Source of the DNA: Lytechinus pictus
Taxonomy: Eukaryota
NCBI RefSeq assembly: GCF_037042905.1
Contig: NC_087245.1
Span: 19,532,001-19,596,000, forward strand
DNA length: 64,000 nt
Direction of reading: 5' to 3'
In this document: one piece after another, positions 8,727 to 50,063 of the stretch
How the letters are laid out: the number at the start of each line of letters is the position of its first letter
Position numbering within the stretch: the first letter of the stretch is position 1
The notes under the pieces: generated by a model
What the model was told of the DNA's origin: nothing
Databases searched by the model: none
Seen by the model: the letters and a program-made list of their open reading frames with translations, nothing else
Program-made: the position numbers and the translations under genes

Positions 8727-9023
8727 CTAAAGAAGAATACAATTTATGAATATTAGTGAAAGCTTCTGAAGTACATGTTTGCAAGCATCATGGCATCAGG
8801 ATATTGTTATGCATGTATAAAGATTGACCATGCCTTTGGTTTCAATACTTTCTGTAATCCTAACTTTACCCCCAATTCTAACTGTGATACATAATTTTAG
8901 CATCTAGGAAATACTGTCATGCATTTACAATCCTTTAAATACATAAGATCAAAATTAATATTCACTTCAATGCTCTCTTTTCCTTAAAACTATTTATTAT
9001 TCTTTCAGTAGGCAGAATCTCAC

Positions 9024-9200
9024 CTGGCCTGTACTCCAAACCCTGAGTTGTTCTCTGACCTGTCCTGGTGAGGAACACACCTGGAGACGTCACATTTACA
9101 CTTCCTGGCTGGGAGGTCAGCCCATCCTGCTCAACATTGATATGGATTTTCAGATCTTGCTGGGAGTCAGTGACATCCCTCTGGTATCGGTAAGAAGATG
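9024..9200 (-). CDS. TTN: 177-nt linker exon
   Basis: atacag|CA TCT...CCA G|gtgaga, phase 1-1, open frame SSYRYQRDVTDSQQDLKIHINV. Confidence 0.8.
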
Positions 9201-9937
9201 CTGTATATGGATAAATATAGAAACATCACATGTACTGATATAATACATTGGGAAATTTGAATTAGTCTTAATTCATATCTAGCATAAATTAACTCTTAAT
9301 GTGCCAGATGAATCACAGCTCTACGGGATTTATGTGTACTATCAGGTGCTGATTGGCAACAGCAGCACTCTGAGAGTTGAGCAATATAATGTTTAGATGC
9401 AATAAGCAAATATTAACATGCCAATGTAATGTGACGCTTGAAAACTGGTAGTTTTGTTGACTTCAGCATGGGTCTTGACATTTAATGTCATGCTATTACA
9501 GTGATGGGACTACACATAGATCCCCCCACCTACCTGAAAAATAGGTTCGCTGCTCGAATCTCTGCCAATGCACTTCCATAATGACACTCTATCCCATTCT
9601 AATTAGAATACTTCTAAACTCAGGTCATTATCTGTAATCAATCCTAACAGCAAGTTTGAGTCCTAACACATATCAGAGTTGTGAAGTGTTTCATTTCCTT
9701 CCTCTCCTAGCTTCTACCAATTGTTAAAACTCAGCATCAGTTGATCTGATGTTGAACTAAAAGTATAAGCAATACAGTTGGTATAGCCATGAACACAAAA
9801 ACAGCATATTATATTTTCATGCTTTCCACTTGATTGCTGACATGATATTTTGGCAAGGATTCAAAATATTTCCTCCACTCAATCCTCATTCAATCTAAAT
9901 ACTGCAGAGGACATGAACGGGACATCAATGGACTTAC

Positions 9938-10106
9938 GGTTAACTGTGAGGTGTGCAATAGACGTTGCTTCTCCTGCCTGGTTGGTGGCCTTGACGATAT
10001 ATTCCCCAGAGTCTTCAGGATAAAGGGATGAAATCTCAAGAACACAGGTGCCATCTTCTGTGATCCTGATGGTGATGCGACTGTCTTGCCTCAGCTCCCT
10101 ACCACT
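9938..10106 (-). CDS. TTN: Exon, second half of Ig15
   Basis: atgtag|AGT GGT...AAC C|gtaagt; PEDSGEYIVKATNQAG. Confidence 0.9.
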
Positions 10107-10457
10107 CTACATCACCAATGTCCACACAAGAATGTTACATTAATACATATATAAAAGATTAAAAAATATATCATGAAACTGTAAACATTAACTTCAGTTT
10201 TGCAACGTCAGCCATGTATTTCATCTATGAAATAATGAAGTAAGTAACCATTGCCTTACACTCACCGATGACTCTTGTCTTTCATTCTATTAAACATTGG
10301 ATCTTCAATAACAAAAGACAATAATTACAAAAAACTGAATTCTTAAGAAACCATGATTATCTGTCAATCCCTAATCATGTAAGCAATAATTTTTTTTATA
10401 GTTGAGCTATAAATATGATGAGAAATTTTATCACAAGTAGCCTCAACTGGCTCATAC

Positions 10458-10780
10458 CTTGTACCACCTGACTGTTGGTCTGGGGTTACCACTGACGTGG
10501 CACTCAAAGCGGGCAGTTCCACCTTCGTTAACCTCCTGACTGCTTACAAATGACTGGAAGGATGGAGGTTGAGCAGGTTTTGGACGGAGTTGAGGTTGGA
10601 CTTCGGCAGGTTTGGGCTTAGGTGGAGCAGGAGCTGGAGCGGCTCCTGGCCTGAAGGTTGGAGGTGGTATCGTCTGGATGTCGAGGTCTGAGTAGTAGAT
10701 ATCCTCTCCAGGAGCCACAGACAGTGTGGACTGGATGAAACGAGCCTGCTTGGTCTCACGGACTATGCGTTGCTCCTCAT
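10458..10780 (-). CDS. TTN: Exon, linker and first half of Ig15
   Basis: cattag|AT GAG...TAC AAG|gtatga; FECHVSGNPRPTVRWYK. Confidence 0.9.
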
Positions 10781-11239
10781 CTAATGAACAGTGAGCAATG
10801 ACATTACAGGATATTGACATAAATTGTTTGCTAGGTAATTAGATTCAAATACATGTACATGTTCAGTGTTGACTTGACTTAATTTTTCTTGATGCAATGA
10901 CAAATGTTCTAGTGGCCTCAATTTCATTTCAACAGTACTCTGTTTTAGTTTTGCTTGATACAGATGCTTTTAATCTTATTATATTTGTATACTTTATTGT
11001 CAATGTGATACTGGTTAAGAGTTCAGTCACCTTCCAAGATATCAGAGATGGATGTTTGACCATTAAGATTTCTGCAATAGAAAAGGGATTGTTGTCATCT
11101 AATCAAATTCTACTGAAAAATTCTATACATGGATAATATAGACATTTAGAAAATGCATATAATTTTGAGTCTGAATTCTTGTCATTCCTCACAACTAACT
11201 TAAAAAAATTTCATTCATGACAGCACTGGATTCACATAC

Positions 11240-12445
11240 CTTCAACGATCAGCTTTGCAGTACATGAAGCCAGTCCAGCTGCATTCTCAATCTTACATGT
11301 GATTTTGCTTGAGTCATCTGGCTGCACCTTAGGAAAGGTCAGTGTGGTTGTTCCATCTGGCTTAGTGTCAACCTTGCAAATTATTGAAGGTATTAGCTCT
11401 TGTCCATCTCTGAACCATTTGATAGACGGCATAGGTTTACCAGACACCTGTGCTTCAAAGCGACCTTCCTCCCCAGGTTTCACCCTGCAGTGATTGATGA
11501 ACTTGAGAAAGTTTGGTGGTTTCCGATCCTCAGGTGGTGGTGGCATTATAGTAAACTGTTTAGATTGAACGGGTACTGCCTTAGTTGGTTTGGTTACCTG
11601 AGGTTTGATGTCTGAAGTCACCGGTATCTTCATTGTTGGAGCACCTGGCGATGGTTTCGGTGCTGCACCTGGTTTGGCTGGAGTGCTAGGTGCTGGTGTT
11701 GCTGGTTTGCCTGGTGTAACTGGAGCCTGAGAAGATTTAAATGGCACTGATGGTTTTGGTGTCACAGACGGTTTTGATGTCAGAGATGGTTTAGATGGGC
11801 CTGGTGGTTTAGTGTCCTCTGGTTGCTGGAACTTTGCCAATAGTGAAGGTGTAACATAATGCTTTGGTGGTGGCACTTGTCCTTGGGTGTGAGGTGGCAT
11901 GTACACCACAGGAGGTGTACCAAGATCAGCTACTTCTGGCTGATCTATGTGCAGCATTGGCTGTGGTCGGACACTTCCAACATCACTTGGCGCAGGTGGT
12001 CTTGTAGGGGATAAATCCTTTTGCATTGGACGTCTTGTAGGAGATAAATCCTTTTGCATAGGACGTCTTGTAGGTGAGGGTTCCTTTCGCACAGGGCGGG
12101 TAGGTGACAAGTCCTTATGTGCACGATCTTCAGCTCTCTGAAAAGCTTCAATCTTAGAGGATAGTTTGGTCTTGGCTTGTGCTTTAGTTAAGCTTGGCAC
12201 CTTATCCGCTGCTTTTTCTTGACTGTCGTCTGTGTGCTGAGCAAATGGATGCCCCTCTTCATCTTCACTCTCCTTCCTAGTACGTTTCTTCTTCCGTGGC
12301 AAGACCAGGGTCTCATCATAGGGTAGGATGTCGTCCAGGTCAACGTCGGTATCAGAGTCCATACCTGGGTCGACACTGGCACTGACATCAGCCCCATAGG
12401 ACTCACTGAAGCTAAGAAGATTTCCAGCAGGAGCATCTATATCAA
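11240..12445 (-). CDS. TTN: 1206-nt exon: acidic/basic segment, SPTR repeats, Pro-rich linker, Ig14
   Basis: taacag|TT GAT...GAA G|gtatgt, phase 1-1; overlaps ORF 11232..12488. Confidence 0.92.
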
Positions 12446-13004
12446 CTGTTAAGTCATACAACATGGTTACAAAAAAATAAGAATGCAATATAACAAATTA
12501 GAATTCTTGGACCTGCAATTATTTAAACATTGTCATGTTTTAATTGTAATTTGCATAATATTCTTAAGTGCTTGAGATTTTCATAAGCTATGAAACTTGT
12601 CTTACCTAAAAACTGCATAGTTTGTACACACCTGATATATAGTAAAGCTTACTTTTATTGAAAGAAACACAACCAATTTCAATTAAGATTTTTGCAATCT
12701 CTTTAAACAGATTTCATTATACTACGAATCCACTCTGAATACAAGAGAGAATATAAAAATGTATTTCAAATTTATTTTTTCAATTAATATCTTATCACAT
12801 AAGAAACTTCAAAATTCAAGAGAACTTGATCTCATCATTACCCCAGGCAGACTTTCATTCCTAGCGTATTTGCCAATAATTGTTCAAAAGAAATGTCCTA
12901 TTTTAAATTTACACTTTTTCTATCTAATAGTAATATACATCATACGATCTGATCATCAACTTATATCACACACAGTTTTCATATGTCAACATCATCACTT
13001 TTGT

Positions 13005-13478
13005 TGTTTGAAAGTTTGCATGGTGGCAATCACTGATGTGGTTTACAGTACACCATGTGGAGTGTTATAGAAACAGTGGATAGAAGAAGAAAAGAAATGG
13101 ATAGGCGAGAAAGTGGAAATTTGAGAGTAGAGTAATCTTTCTTGAATGTAGTCCTGAACTTATCTCCTGAAGACGGACAGTTAACCTGTCCGAAACGTCG
13201 AGTCTCTGACAGTCAACCTGCCCGAAACGTCGAGTCTCTCTACTGCTTCTACTCATCATCTCTACTCGCCGACTCAAGCCAGCATCTCCTCATCCATCCT
13301 ACTATTCAAGCTGTTTTCAACTCATCAATCTCTTCTGGTTTACAGTCCTTTTCAGGACTACATTCAAGAAAGATTACTCTACTCTCAAATTTCCACTTTC
13401 TCGCCTATCCATTTCTTTTCTTCTTCTATCCACTGTTTCTATAACACTCCACATGGTGTACCGTAAACCACATCAGCG
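13005..13478 (+). mobile_element. Penelope-like retroelement fragment with inverted terminal segments and 14-bp TSD
   Basis: 130-bp inverted repeat 13029-13158 / 13351-13480 with 2 mismatches seen. Direct repeat atcatcacttttgt at 12991-13004 and 13479-13492. Hammerhead motif inside. Confidence 0.7.
13164..13202 (+). ncRNA. Minimal type I hammerhead ribozyme motif
   Basis: CTC-CTGAAGA-C-GGACAG(ttaac)CTGTCC-GAAAC-GTC-GAG: core boxes, 6-bp stem II, palindromic ACGT, GUC triplet, 3-bp stem I. Confidence 0.6.
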
Positions 13479-14455
13479 ATCATCACTTTTGTCAAGTCAA
13501 TGTAAAGTCTAATAGTATACTGAGGGGGTATCAAACATTAGATTCTTAAACATCCATGCAGAATGCAAAACTAGAATTGACAATTTGGTGCAAATTTTAC
13601 AGTAAAGAGCTATAAAGGCAATTCAAGAAGGAAAATTTAGGGGGTTTGATTTTTTGCATCAAATATTTAAATTATTTCATTGACCCTATCATTCATTTTT
13701 ATTCATACAAGAACCCATCATTATCAACATCATGTAATGGCATTGATTATTTATGATTTTTTTAATTTGTATTCCATTTATTTTCATTTATCAATTTATT
13801 ATCTTCTTATTAGAGGAGGGACATTGTGCCTAACACCTATTTTCCTTGGATCATTCATTAAGGATATACTTTTTTTAGTATTTCATTCCAATAGTAGACG
13901 TTTTAATCAAGAAAAATCTCTATAATACATTTGGTGTATTATAGATGTGTTTTGTGGCCACTGAATTTTCATTATTAAAATGAAGTATTTACTTTAGATC
14001 TAACCAAGACATGAAAGACCTATCAAAATGTTCCTACATAATCATTAGCTCCATCAAAGCAACTATATGCTGTTCGCTCTAAATACTATTTCAAAAGTGT
14101 ATCCTACTTCCACATCATAAAAAATTCTATGAATTTCATTTAAATCTATCCAGTCTGTTTGCATGTGAATCTAAACAACCATAAAAATATGAAGGAAATA
14201 GGGTCAATTTATTTTAAAAAAATGTAAAATTGTAAAATAGAATTTATTTAAATATGAAAATACAGCATTTAAAACTTTGTTTTGTACACTTTTTATTTCT
14301 TTTTTCTTAACTTGATCAAGGGAAATACTTTCTAAGTGACCAAAAAAGCTTATAAGTGTAACCCTAGTTCAATAGGACATTTCTACTGAGATAAACCACA
14401 AACACATAGGATTAACTACAAACATGACACAATATGAAAAAAACTTGGTACTTAC

Positions 14456-14580
14456 ACATGCTAGTAGATTAACGGCACGCTGGGTGATGTTAAGTCCACG
14501 ACAGATGTAAGGGATTGACGAACGGTAGATGCAACGACAGGATCATGCAACGCGGGTAGTGCATACTACGTACATGTACT
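14456..14580 (-). promoter_or_regulatory. Candidate internal alternative first exon (5' UTR plus ATG T|gtaagt); 5' boundary unknown
   Basis: CpG-rich island in an AT-rich intron. agcATGT|GTAAGT is a perfect donor. There is an in-frame upstream TAA. Splicing to 12445 gives in-frame M-F-D-I-D-A-P. Confidence 0.5.
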
Positions 14581-14869
14581 GCATGCTTATTATTTCATGC
14601 AAATGTATACCTGAATCTGTTTATGAATTCACTTATATTACAATTTTATGCATTTGTTTTCCCCATTTTTTAATCATCATTATCTAACTTATTACATACT
14701 TAAGTTTATACTTTGTATTACTTACCAATCAATTGTCCTAACTGTTATATTTTGTTTGTTTTGTTTCAATTTTTTCATTTCTTTTTTTCACTTCATTATT
14801 TGTTTATTTTCTCCAATTATATTAGGTCAGGCCCATCAGTGAGCTAAGAAACTGCAAATTGTTATTTTC

Positions 14870-15020: not shown

Positions 15021-15988
15021 ATTTCTAACAAATACATTAATCTATTGATATTCCAATTGCTCATTTTCTCTTGGCTTCTTTTATTAAGTTGGTATATTCT
15101 TGGTACGTTATTTCATATCTTTATATGGGTGTTTACTTCACCAATAAGTTCACTTCCAAGTCAACGATTCAAAATTACATAATCTTTTGATGCTCAATTA
15201 TGATGCTTATGAAGTAAGTTATTTCTTATCTTCTTGAAGAATATCTACATGAATATTTAGTATATTTACCAATATTCAAATAATTATGTTCATCTTTGAA
15301 CCATTGACATTTTATGATAAACATATTTATCAAACAACGAACATTTGTTCGAGCTGTATTATGGTAGGTATATTAATGAATTCATGAATGATATTTATGC
15401 TATTCATTAATATTAATCAAATATGTATTTAAATATGTATTCATTTTTATTTATGGTACTTATTTGGTTAAGTTAGAAATGAATAGAAAAAAAGTTCTTA
15501 ATAGCACTGAATAGCAATATATCTTTAGTAGAGGCTTATTGATTTTTGGAAAATCTATGGCCTTTCAATTTGGTGGATATGTGCATTTATCATTAACTAA
15601 TGATTCAATAAGAAATAAGACATGCTCGAAACACACTTATGAACATAATGCAAGTCAAACACCACATAACAGTCGTGGATAACAATATACATCCATTAAA
15701 CAGTGTACAAAACAATATCAATAATGCTATCTTTTAACATGTCAACAAATAATGACTTATTTTGAGAAGTTGGAATGTGCAAGTTCAGCATGCTGTCAAA
15801 TGTGATATAGGTATAGCATTCCCTAATGAAATGGTGCCAACATATCAACACAGTTAAACAACATTTTTCCTTAGTATATTCACATTTTTTATGTTCACTA
15901 AACAAACCAAATACATGCACTAACAGCTTTACACACATTTCATGTTGTTTTCAACACACTTACACATAATGGAAACATAAGCTTTACA

Positions 15989-15994: not shown

Positions 15995-17759
15995 CATTGC
16001 CAAAGATTTGTTGAAATTGTTGAATGGAGTAGATTTGTTAAAAGCTATATAATCATTGAACTGAATCATTAATTACACAATTCAAGATGTATTCTTTAGC
16101 AAAAAGAAAATAGAACCTCCACTGTAATTCAACAGATAAAGTCACCCATCTATATGTAAATGAATCGCAAGATGTCCGTAATATTTTTTAATCTTGCATA
16201 AAAACATGGAGCAGTGTTGTTTATTTTCTTTTATGTGTTGTTTATTATCTGAAATGTGTTGCTTTCCTTCTTCAGAATGTCAGAGAGACAAAACATATGT
16301 GTATTGAACAAAATTTGTGTCACGCAATCTTTCCAATACTTGTAGTAGCCCCACTTTGCAAGTGTATGTATGGAAACTTTGCCACAATGGTAACTACCAT
16401 GGTAACAGGTCAAAGCAGCCAATCAAAATCAAGGTTTTAATGAATGTTAACATAATACCAAGTTACCATATTTGTATATCTTTATGAAATGGAACTCCTA
16501 ATTGTATTCATAGGAAAAATATAATACTGTAATGGTATGCACTAACCATATCCCCCCCCCCCTTTTATGGAATATCTATTTTTTGGGTGATCTCCTTTGC
16601 TTTGTAAGCATACATGTCTGTGAATGCTTTTCTTTCATCATATCCTGTCATTATCTCTTCATTTGTAACACCTACTGAGTTTTACAAATCATGTTTTATC
16701 TTTTCTTTATACTGTATTTATCAAAATACATGTATGAGAAAAGGGATATTTTTTAATGAAATGGAAGTTGTCTAAACATTAAATCTATACAATCTAGACA
16801 TTAAAATTGTTCATTCTATATATAATGCACAATTTCTGTATTTAAAAAAAAATCACTTTTAAAACTTGTGGCAGAATATCTATGTTCCTTGCAGATTAAT
16901 AGCCCTTCTGATATTTTTTTTCTCCAAAAAAGATAAAATAGCAGTTTATCAACATCAAAATCCCTGCATTTGGATGAAAAGTTTTTAATTAAACTTTATT
17001 TTCAGGTTCCTATAACTCTATGAACTTTAGAGATTCCAACAAAGTTTAAATGTCTCTCAAATTTGATCAGTATCCTTACCCCAACAAGTAATTTAAATTA
17101 TCGAATTCTTAACATTACCAACAAAGATTAAGTCATTCTTTTTCACATTTAGCATACTGACGGGTACAGGTTTATTACAGTAATACGCAACTGAAAAAAA
17201 AACTCATTACATCTTTCTTTTTTTTTTCTTTAATCTGCAATCGATTTAGCATTTTTCATGAATCAATAAATAATATAAGATCGGAGTCTGGAAAAGTATA
17301 ATTGGATTGCAGATTTTAAAGGTAAATTTGAAATTCATTTAGATGATATTTTAAGGTTCATACATGTATCTCACCATGTGAAGTTTGGTTTTATTTGATT
17401 GATTCTTTCCTTCAAATGCCCTCAGAAAAGGACATGATATACCTGCTAGTATAACATGGGACAATGACATTGGACACCTCACCCATTAAATTTCTTTGAT
17501 TTGATTTTTTGACATTAGATCAATTAATATTTTCAAACTATGCTAAACAACCTTCAAAGATTTTATTCTCTGTAAAATGGGCAACCCAATTCCAAACACT
17601 TCAAAATTATGTGAGTTCGGTTTAGTCTCACTCTCTTCAAAATTAAAGATCTACATCAAAACCAGGGTTACAAATCTATGATCAGTTCCTATGGCAACGG
17701 GGGGGGGGGGCACCTAGGCTAATCTTTCATTCAATCTGATACAAATGATCTTGGTTGGT

Positions 17760-19758: not shown

Positions 19759-20073
19759 CTTCAACAAGCAGCTGAGAACTGCATGTGACCTGTCCTGCCG
19801 GGTTGGAAGCCGTTACGGAAATACGACCGGAGTCGTCGGCAAGCACCTGAGGGATGTAGAGCGTGCTGGTCCCGTCCGAACCGGTGGAGACCCGCTTATG
19901 GGGCATGCTCTGAATCAGCTTTCCCTCATGAAACCACTGGACCTCAGGGCGTGGACTCCCAACCACTTTGCATTCAAAGCGGGCGGGGCTACCCTCGGCC
20001 ACCTCTAGATTCACTATCTTCTTTAAAAACTTAGGGGGAACAGCAAACTCCGCTGCAGACTCAATTTCTTCAA
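19759..20073 (-). CDS. TTN: Exon, Ig13
   Basis: ttccag|TT GAA...GAA G|gtatga, phase 1-1, 315 nt. Confidence 0.92.
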
Positions 20074-47351: not shown

Positions 47352-49007
47352 CTGAAAAGATGGAGCAGCCCATTTTGGTATACTCAAATCGGTTCCATTA
47401 AACATGCAGCTCACTCAGTTTGTTTATTTAAGTATTCAACACACAGCATGCTCTTTAGTGTTTTAAAAGAAATCTATAGCAATTTGACAAATGAAAATGC
47501 TTGACATGACAGCTAATGTTTACCAATCTCTCTATACATGTACGTCTGGCATCAGCTTTCATGAGAAATTTCATACGTAGGGTGTTTACCCATTAACGGA
47601 TTGATTACTGAAACCAGATGCTACATAATACTACATAATGCAGTATTTGATCGATTAATGTGTTATATTAACTAAATAGAGTAGAACTGCATTCTACAAC
47701 CAACCTATTTACGCAATTTTTTTGAGAAGTTTTTTTCTTGCCTCATATAGTAAAGTTCATAACTCGATTCAGGCAAAAATGTTGCTTGTGAGTCAATTTG
47801 ATGGTATGGCATAATTGGCTGAGCCCCAAATATGCAAGTATGTGACAGGAATTTCCTTTGCTTTTTACACAGTCTGGTGTCAGCAAATTGTAATCTATTT
47901 CCCATGAAAGCTCAAGAAAAACCGACAAAGATGTGAATTAAGAAAAAAGCTAATGCAGATTTATTGACAAACATGTTGATGAAGAAAACATATCAAATGA
48001 AGCATGACTGCATCTCAAAATACTCATGAAATCACAATGCATATGAACATCTTATCCCTCTTTTTTCTACCAGCATTTGTGAATTTTGTCACATAAGTCA
48101 AATACAATTTGATTTTCAAGTAATGTCATTATAACTTATGACCATCTGGAGCTTATAAATAAACTGTAAATATGCAGATATGTTCATATTTGAGTGGAAT
48201 GGCGAAATTACTCATCTTTGATCATAACATATGAGCAGAGAGTGATAACCTTAGTGACGAACAGCATGCAAAGATGCAAAATCACTCATACTTGAAAAAA
48301 AAGTCCCATTAATTTTAATGAAACATTTTATACTTCATATATGAATCTGCATCAATGCAAAAACATTTATTCATACCAAATATCATAACAAAGTCACTTG
48401 GGAGTACAATATATATATTTATGAGATCTTCCTGTATCTGGAAAATAGATATATTTATGAATAATATGATGGATATCTATAGAAGTACAAATGAATGAAA
48501 CATGGAAAACATTCAACCAGTGTTATAAAAGCTATGAAAAACAAACTTAGAATTTTTACAAAAATATAATTGTGCAAGTTAAGAACACACAGATCCACAA
48601 CACTTAACCTAGTTGAAAGAATGAAATTCTATTTTCAAATTTACAGCTTTCGCTGGTAAACTATTAAGCATCTACTTTTTACGAAATACATTTGATCAAG
48701 TCACTCTGAAATCAAGGTCAAATGACAAAAATTCACAATTCACAAAATGTGTGAAAAGGAAAATACCATCAAATAATCACGGTTAATTATCCCGATGTCA
48801 AATAAGCTATTATATAGTGTATCATTTTTAGGTGCATAGGAAATAATATAATATCGTGTGAATAAAATAGCAGAATACAAAAATTAGATTTGAAATGACA
48901 TGGTCACACAAGGTTATACACTGCATGTGGAATAAAACACTATTCTACTCATGAACATGAAAAGGGGGTAACACAGTGATGAAGGATGAGGGACGTGAGG
49001 GGGGTAC

Positions 49008-49124
49008 CTTCCACTCCATGGGGGCATGGTAGATGCTGGTACGACCGATGCGTTCTCGATACTCAACCTCCTGCTGAAGACGCTGTTGAAACGGCGAGAG
49101 GCTTGGTCTTCTCTGAGGAGCATC
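49008..49124 (-). CDS. TTN: Candidate cassette exon A (DAPQRRPSLSPFQQRLQQEVEYRERIGRTSIYHAPMEWK)
   Basis: catag|GAT...AAG|gtaccc, 117 nt, phase 0-0; GC/CpG-rich island in AT-rich intron; SxFxxRLxxEVEYR motif. Confidence 0.75.
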
Positions 49125-50063
49125 CTATGATTTACATTGCAACCATGCCAAGGTGTACATGCCAATGAGCACAAGCAAGCATGAATTTTGAAATTTAGAG
49201 GGGAACAGAGGTCAAAGGTCAGCTATGAGGTGACGGGGTCCACTCAACAAGCCATGATTTCGTTTGGATTTAGACTGACAGAATATCATGCTCTGGATAC
49301 TATTTCAAGGCAGCATTTTATAACAATTATTGCACTGTTTATTTTTTTTTTGGTCTATAAATACCTGAGAAATTTATGAAGAACTAAAGTAAGCCATATG
49401 TTTATATAACTTCATCAATCATGAAAATGCGACAATCAATACTTTATTTCTCATTCTCAGAAAATTTATTTTGAATCACAAGAAAGCATCTACTTTTATT
49501 TCCTTCTAAAACATTATCAGATTGACACTTTTCTAAAACACAATGAAAAATTAACTAGAGAAAAGGATGCAGCATATTCCACAAATTTCATGATGCATGC
49601 AGGCGACATTTTTTTCTATAATCATTACTGTCGTAAATAACAAAATATATAAATACAGTCCTTTCTATTGTTCTGTAAACATTTCATTTCTAAAAAAAAA
49701 TCACTTGTACTCAAACAAATTACTCATTAAAAAAAAATTCAAATAAGAAAAATAAGCAATTCTTAAGGTATGGGCATGACCCTTACAATTGGAAAAAAAA
49801 AGAAAATTCAATTCACTCTTTCATCTCCCAGAGCTAACCAGAAAATAAACATGGACTATAGAGTTTTGAAGTCATTTCTAACAAGGAACAGTTGATTAAT
49901 AGAAATATTTCCAGCACTTATACATGGATATGCGCTTTTGAACAATTGGCATAGAACTTGTTATAATCCAATTTCAATAATGTAAATTTCAAATTCATGA
50001 TCTCTCAGGAATTTTATTTTTGAGCTCCTAATCTTCCAGGAATGCCCAAAGGACAGTACTCAC

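Follow-up and report, generated by a model that had tools for sequence, protein, structure and literature searches.

Among the closest described systems is the Cronos isoform of vertebrate titin. As presented in the accessible portion of PMC4720518, it starts in the distal I-band region, where an internal exon is extended on its 5' side without splicing and the Met stands 7-12 codons ahead of that exon; 5'RACE, chromatin marks and the protein itself have proven it. In the Drosophila sallimus locus (zormin/kettin/Sls) and in the 'connectitin' locus, whose logic the locus considered here resembles, separate and joined products arise from one locus (PMC12198301; PMC12657953); the accessible portions of these accounts mention neither a promoter at the kettin/post-kettin boundary nor an echinoderm isoform. 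The parts of PMC9886281 and of the supplement of PMC12198301 at hand contained nothing on the candidate site, and no report of titin isoforms in echinoderms, or of a promoter inside an echinoderm titin, was encountered among the literature matches listed. Promoters located inside giant muscle genes are already a known kind, of which the present element is a candidate.

This candidate was found in a window of 64,000 nucleotides from Lytechinus pictus (NC_087245.1); positions are those of the window and the gene is read on its minus strand. Like Cronos, it would start within an intron of a titin gene and yield a product shortened at its N terminus, and, just as Cronos is paired with the short N-terminal isoform Novex-3, a short isoform exists here (both comparisons based on the accessible portion of PMC4720518). 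In contrast to Cronos, the candidate would form an exon of its own, Met-only and 2 kb upstream, for which splicing is needed, and it lies between the kettin-like Igs and the PEVK-like repeats, whereas Cronos is an A-band/M-line isoform. An unspliced Met extension of the Cronos type was not displayed by the candidate; only a rival ATG at 12464 has that build. The analogy drawn in the preliminary description would hold in outline (Cronos plus Novex-3) and is loose in architecture and position. The candidate is not Cronos itself.

The gene is an echinoderm titin of the kettin/sallimus type, a giant muscle gene rich in Ig domains and with 201-bp PEVK-like repeats along its 3' edge. Its nearest named relative by identity was a titin-like protein of Amphiura filiformis (53 % in the best segment). 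Exons 51710-41021 best matched the N-terminal Igs of arthropod kettins, in order and with modest scores, which would place the intron of interest (19758-12446) after a kettin-like unit; this intron would separate a compact kettin-like unit upstream from an elastic part downstream. It is preceded by an Ig exon (20073-19759) whose phase-1 donor GTATGA is either spliced to 12445 or read through according to RNA, and followed by an acceptor exon (12445-11240, RNA and alignment) encoding the motif LSFSESYG..DTD..DILP, a Pro-rich linker and one I-set Ig. Further downstream, a 177-nt exon (9200-9024) displayed joints in three RNA runs (X6, X7 and X1). The motif itself (12416-12320 on the minus strand, 1410-1510 in the brittle-star locus L001 treated below) is non-Ig, reads LSFSESYGxDxS..DTDxDxxxILP, is kept in echinoderm relatives and had no Pfam match; Ser-Asp-Thr/Ile-Asp-like words are repeated downstream of it. 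Homologue searches among database proteins of up to 5000 aa returned just generic Ig proteins and arthropod kettins, and the ESM Atlas returned Ig-family look-alikes and nothing else. One protein (P0052) was judged a chance match and excluded from the motif and kettin comparisons. A metagenome scan confirmed none of 77 stretches with the window protein as query, and one among the 595 stretches listed with alignment A2 as query.

The letters reported earlier for the candidate were present as claimed. The minus-strand string TAA TCT ACT AGC ATG T|GTAAGT comprises an in-frame stop (14471-14469), a candidate initiator ATG (14459-14457) with A at -3 and T at +4, a single T after the Met (14456) and a canonical phase-1 candidate donor (GTAAGT, 14455-14450). 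The phase fit was also confirmed: with the acceptor AG at 12447-12446 and an exon opening TT GAT ATA at 12445, the product would begin M-F-D-I-D-A. All three frames across the element were either stopped or out of phase at the donor, and it therefore cannot serve 12445 as a normal internal coding exon, in agreement with the preliminary description. The candidate 5'UTR exon, ending with Met plus one nucleotide, was placed at 14600-14456, with a tentative 5' limit, from composition and unspliced RNA cover; this patch also falls in the distal part of the short isoform's 3'UTR. Instead of the single short upstream ORF previously announced, five upstream ATGs (14598, 14584, 14575, 14564 and 14546) open uORFs of 2-24 aa between 14598 and 14490, all closed before 14459. 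The TATAAG does exist (14637-14632); it is a weak TATA-like hexamer that occurs 16 times on this strand. At the 5' edge, the pyrimidine fraction was 0.47 at 14565 and three candidate AGs scored 0.47-0.59, with five real acceptors spanning 0.41-0.82. Predicted folding was unremarkable (z -1.25, no special structure), and the two Rfam matches were both far under the gathering score.

The claimed CpG density was borne out: 14570-14456 holds nine CpG in 115 bp (o/e 1.34, GC 0.496), in a host intron with a GC of 0.31 and a CpG o/e of 0.32, and nine CpG per 120 bp were reached in none of 1000 order-2 Markov resamples of this intron. CpG islands are usually defined by 200 bp, GC over 0.5 and o/e over 0.6. 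The patch fell short of this rule, measuring 115 bp at GC 0.496, or 245 bp at GC 0.367, with o/e above 1. GC was 0.50 in the 100 nt preceding the candidate donor and 0.31 after it, a step that stops at the donor and thereby gives the patch the look of an exon end: four comparison donors with RNA support displayed 0.45-0.56 before and 0.28-0.39 after, and the two other GTAAGT of the same intron were preceded by only 0.21-0.27. A scan of both strands covered 87 GTRAG sites outside exons, using a hand-drawn exon mask and a test picked after the site had been seen; at least five CpG upstream were encountered at one site, the candidate donor, and an upstream GC of at least 0.45 at two. The same scan gave no GTRAG donor at a non-coding CpG cluster at 48982-49145 (seven in 100 bp). 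At 61200-61029 (minus strand), a GC-raised stretch (0.48) up to GTGAGT 61034 lies outside the mask and may be an unannotated exon. Checked as a possible transposon fragment, the patch is single copy inside the window, and the raw reads of run X9 displayed repeat-type piles near 13.0-13.5 kb and 16.4 kb and no reads in the bin of the patch. High-copy repeats were recognised at 13028-13480, with inverted ends and a CpG cluster, and at 16375-16437; each of the four runs gave both of them extremely deep cover and numerous loose ends.

RNA evidence came from four of 14 listed runs, as contigs of three (X1, X6 and X7) and raw reads of a fourth (X9, about 6 % read); X1 derived from organism A, about 96-97 % alike. 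Contigs omit rare forms and carry no strand. A 7669-nt contig of X6 joined 19759 to 12445 without a break, so that both halves belong to one gene. The joint 14456->12445 is missing from the 15 joints listed, out of 35 in the four runs, and contigs omit rare forms. X1 had zero cover at 12243-12686 and neither X7 nor X1 had cover at 12402; X6 alone therefore tests this junction. Neither 8900-12686 nor the patch received any X9 read, and this run says nothing about the start site. Depth in X7 was 2.5 on the patch versus 41 downstream. Downstream contig depth (144 in X6, 41 in X7) exceeded upstream depth minus read-through (~103-60 and 18-8), which is a weak hint of an internal start, contig depths being poor measures of expression.

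The donor at 19759 was read through in X6 (depth 59.7) and X7 (8.4), and cover ran on to ~14300. The short isoform detected is this read-through form, consisting of kettin-like Igs, a 66-aa tail and a long 3'UTR that overlaps the patch (19758-14300, RNA contigs). A 2845-nt contig of X6 passed the patch and its donor unspliced and ended at 14332-14336; the patch was crossed unspliced in X7 and X1 too, by bin arithmetic only. In X7 the main tail ended at 14799 and a contig of depth 2.5 ran downward from 14672, while in X1 a contig of depth 6.8 ran from 14628 over ~312 nt by bin arithmetic. Contigs ended near 17540, 14799 and ~14300-14335, and AATAAA occurs at 17567, 14808 and 14297, suggesting polyadenylation at these places. 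The preliminary description had the restart follow a tail-anchor isoform, which found no support in the RNA runs used. Its terminal exon (17893-17760, acceptor TCACAG, 19-aa hydropathy 2.48) is a prediction; the joint 19759->17893 was found in none of the 15 of 35 joints listed, and the X1 contig 17942-17540 passed its acceptor unspliced, with no depth step in X6 or X7. A second read-through terminal region (24750 to ~21220, minus strand), with depths of 20-115 in X1, X6 and X7 below the 24750 donor and an 8-aa tail GEWESDDL, suggests another short kettin-like isoform.

Three relatives conserve the early motif of the 12445 exon (P0051, P0053 and P0060). The last of these, Amphiura filiformis model XP_072046919.1, begins at the orthologous exon, 76 aa ahead of the motif, and contains SH3, Ig and Fn3 further downstream. 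Models of giant genes are often split. A further locus (L001) was close to Amphiura, with 190 of 230 residues identical outside the extension, and displayed in order an in-frame TAA (1149), an ATCATGG (1164) and, at 1227, another conserved Met; its Met-led extension of 74 aa was identical to P0060 at 54 of 72 positions. L001 and P0060 resemble the window in the orthologous exon and its motif, and L001 has a phase-1 AG (TTGCAG) where the window has the 12445 acceptor. They differ by their Met-led extension of 74-76 aa, contiguous with the exon and missing from the window. We consider that this extension hints moderately at an internal start here, differently built; in L001, entry at a phase-1 AAG (1173) could instead turn it into an internal exon of greater length. 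A search for the extension in six frames of the window scored 33-49 versus 30-44 for shuffled sequences, the best matches being stop-broken or unrelated. Compared with 1.2 kb of DNA upstream in L001, the patch scored 26, a value reached by 62 of 636 control slices, and no likeness above controls was recognised. The sequence GACTTAAC, spotted by eye as shared between the patch and the L001 upstream DNA, was discarded.

The patch may alternatively be no more than the last ~300 nt of the short isoform's longest 3'UTR, or else a regulatory element of the intron; its ATG and donor would then have arisen by chance, or would represent a U1 site at which splicing never occurs. Cover in X1, X6 and X7 fell to 0.6-2.1 just below 14310, at the AATAAA (14297) of an A-rich tract, and the X1 pile of ~310 nt at the patch resembles the 403-nt pile of the same run at 17942-17540, which ends past AATAAA 17567. 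Four GCATG, two of them TGCATG, lie in 14601-14457 and would suit such a 3'UTR end; we take TGCATG to be an Rbfox-type motif. Over the window, TGCATG is found 42 times on the sense (minus) strand versus 21 on the other, as would fit splicing control of the Rbfox type. The motif around the Met is, by itself, at chance frequency across the window: ATGnGTRAGT was counted twice in 128 kb (both strands) versus ~2 expected by rate scaling, and the intron holds another A..ATGT|GTAAGT (15967-15958, minus strand), taken as chance, which displayed no GC or CpG rise. However, a 3'UTR end leaves unexplained why the CpG and GC step stops at a phase-compatible canonical donor (one of 87 sites), and the contigs omit rare forms. 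We regard this reading as the main rival, if a somewhat unlikely one.

Two other readings appear less probable. A start of true Cronos build could lie just ahead of 12445, at an in-frame ACCATG (12464-12462), the patch being at most an enhancer. Its Met stands six codons before the acceptor, close to the 7-12 codons given for Cronos in the accessible portion of PMC4720518, and the same architecture is present in L001 and P0060. Neither GC nor CpG rises before 12445, though, with zero CpG between 12500 and 12724; the unexplained depth in that bin amounted to just 356 depth-bases in X6 and none in X1, and matches of the brittle-star extension to the window did not outscore shuffled sequences. 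We consider such a start improbable. Highly improbable, in turn, is a 24-nt poison microexon (14479-14456, phase 1-1) that would lower the long isoform through its in-frame stop. It would have a length divisible by three, a strong donor and a CCCAG following an 86-nt AG-free zone, but its pyrimidine tract is weak (0.53), five AG-free gaps of equal or greater length exist in the same intron, and none of the 15 of 35 joints listed supports it.

The patch is probably a real exon-like element, and we tentatively consider it most likely to be a minor alternative first exon (probability roughly 0.45). Counted in favour of a first exon were the GC step ending at a canonical donor, the CpG content (one of 87 sites, none of 1000 resamples), the phase-1 Met, the apparent lack of a strong acceptor at the 5' edge, the single copy in the window, the Amphiura model starting at the orthologous exon and the Met-led extension of L001 with its phase-1 TTGCAG. 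Counted against it were the lack of a listed 14456->12445 joint, the unbroken X6 contig from 12445 into the 19759 exon, the unspliced cover of the patch, its low depth in X7, the five upstream ATGs, the weak TATA, the motif copy at 15967 without CpG and the absence of likeness in L001. The internal start proposed in the preliminary description retained its exon-end anatomy and the hint from relatives at this exon; against it, X6 crosses the patch unspliced and joins 12445 to the upstream Ig exon.

With the patch as a first exon, a weak or tissue-restricted promoter in the intron after the kettin-like 5' part would start transcription in the patch. The resulting non-coding first exon, ending ATG-T, would use the 14455 donor to be spliced to 12445, and translation from its Met would yield a titin without the kettin-like Igs, beginning at the LSFSESYG motif ahead of the PEVK-like region. 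Since this stretch also forms the distal end of the short isoform's 3'UTR, read-through RNA would mask the start. A broader version, which we find distinctly unlikely, would make the kettin/post-kettin boundary an echinoderm-wide restart, in effect two tandem genes that are also spliced into one giant, with a Met-only exon here and a Met-led extension in brittle stars; 3'UTR read-through over the promoter could then render the products mutually exclusive.

If real, the element would mean that internal restarts of the titin class are not restricted to vertebrates, and that an invertebrate deuterostome could make a Z-disc-type Ig part and an elastic part separately or joined. It would then bear on how kettin/sallimus and chordate titin split or fused.
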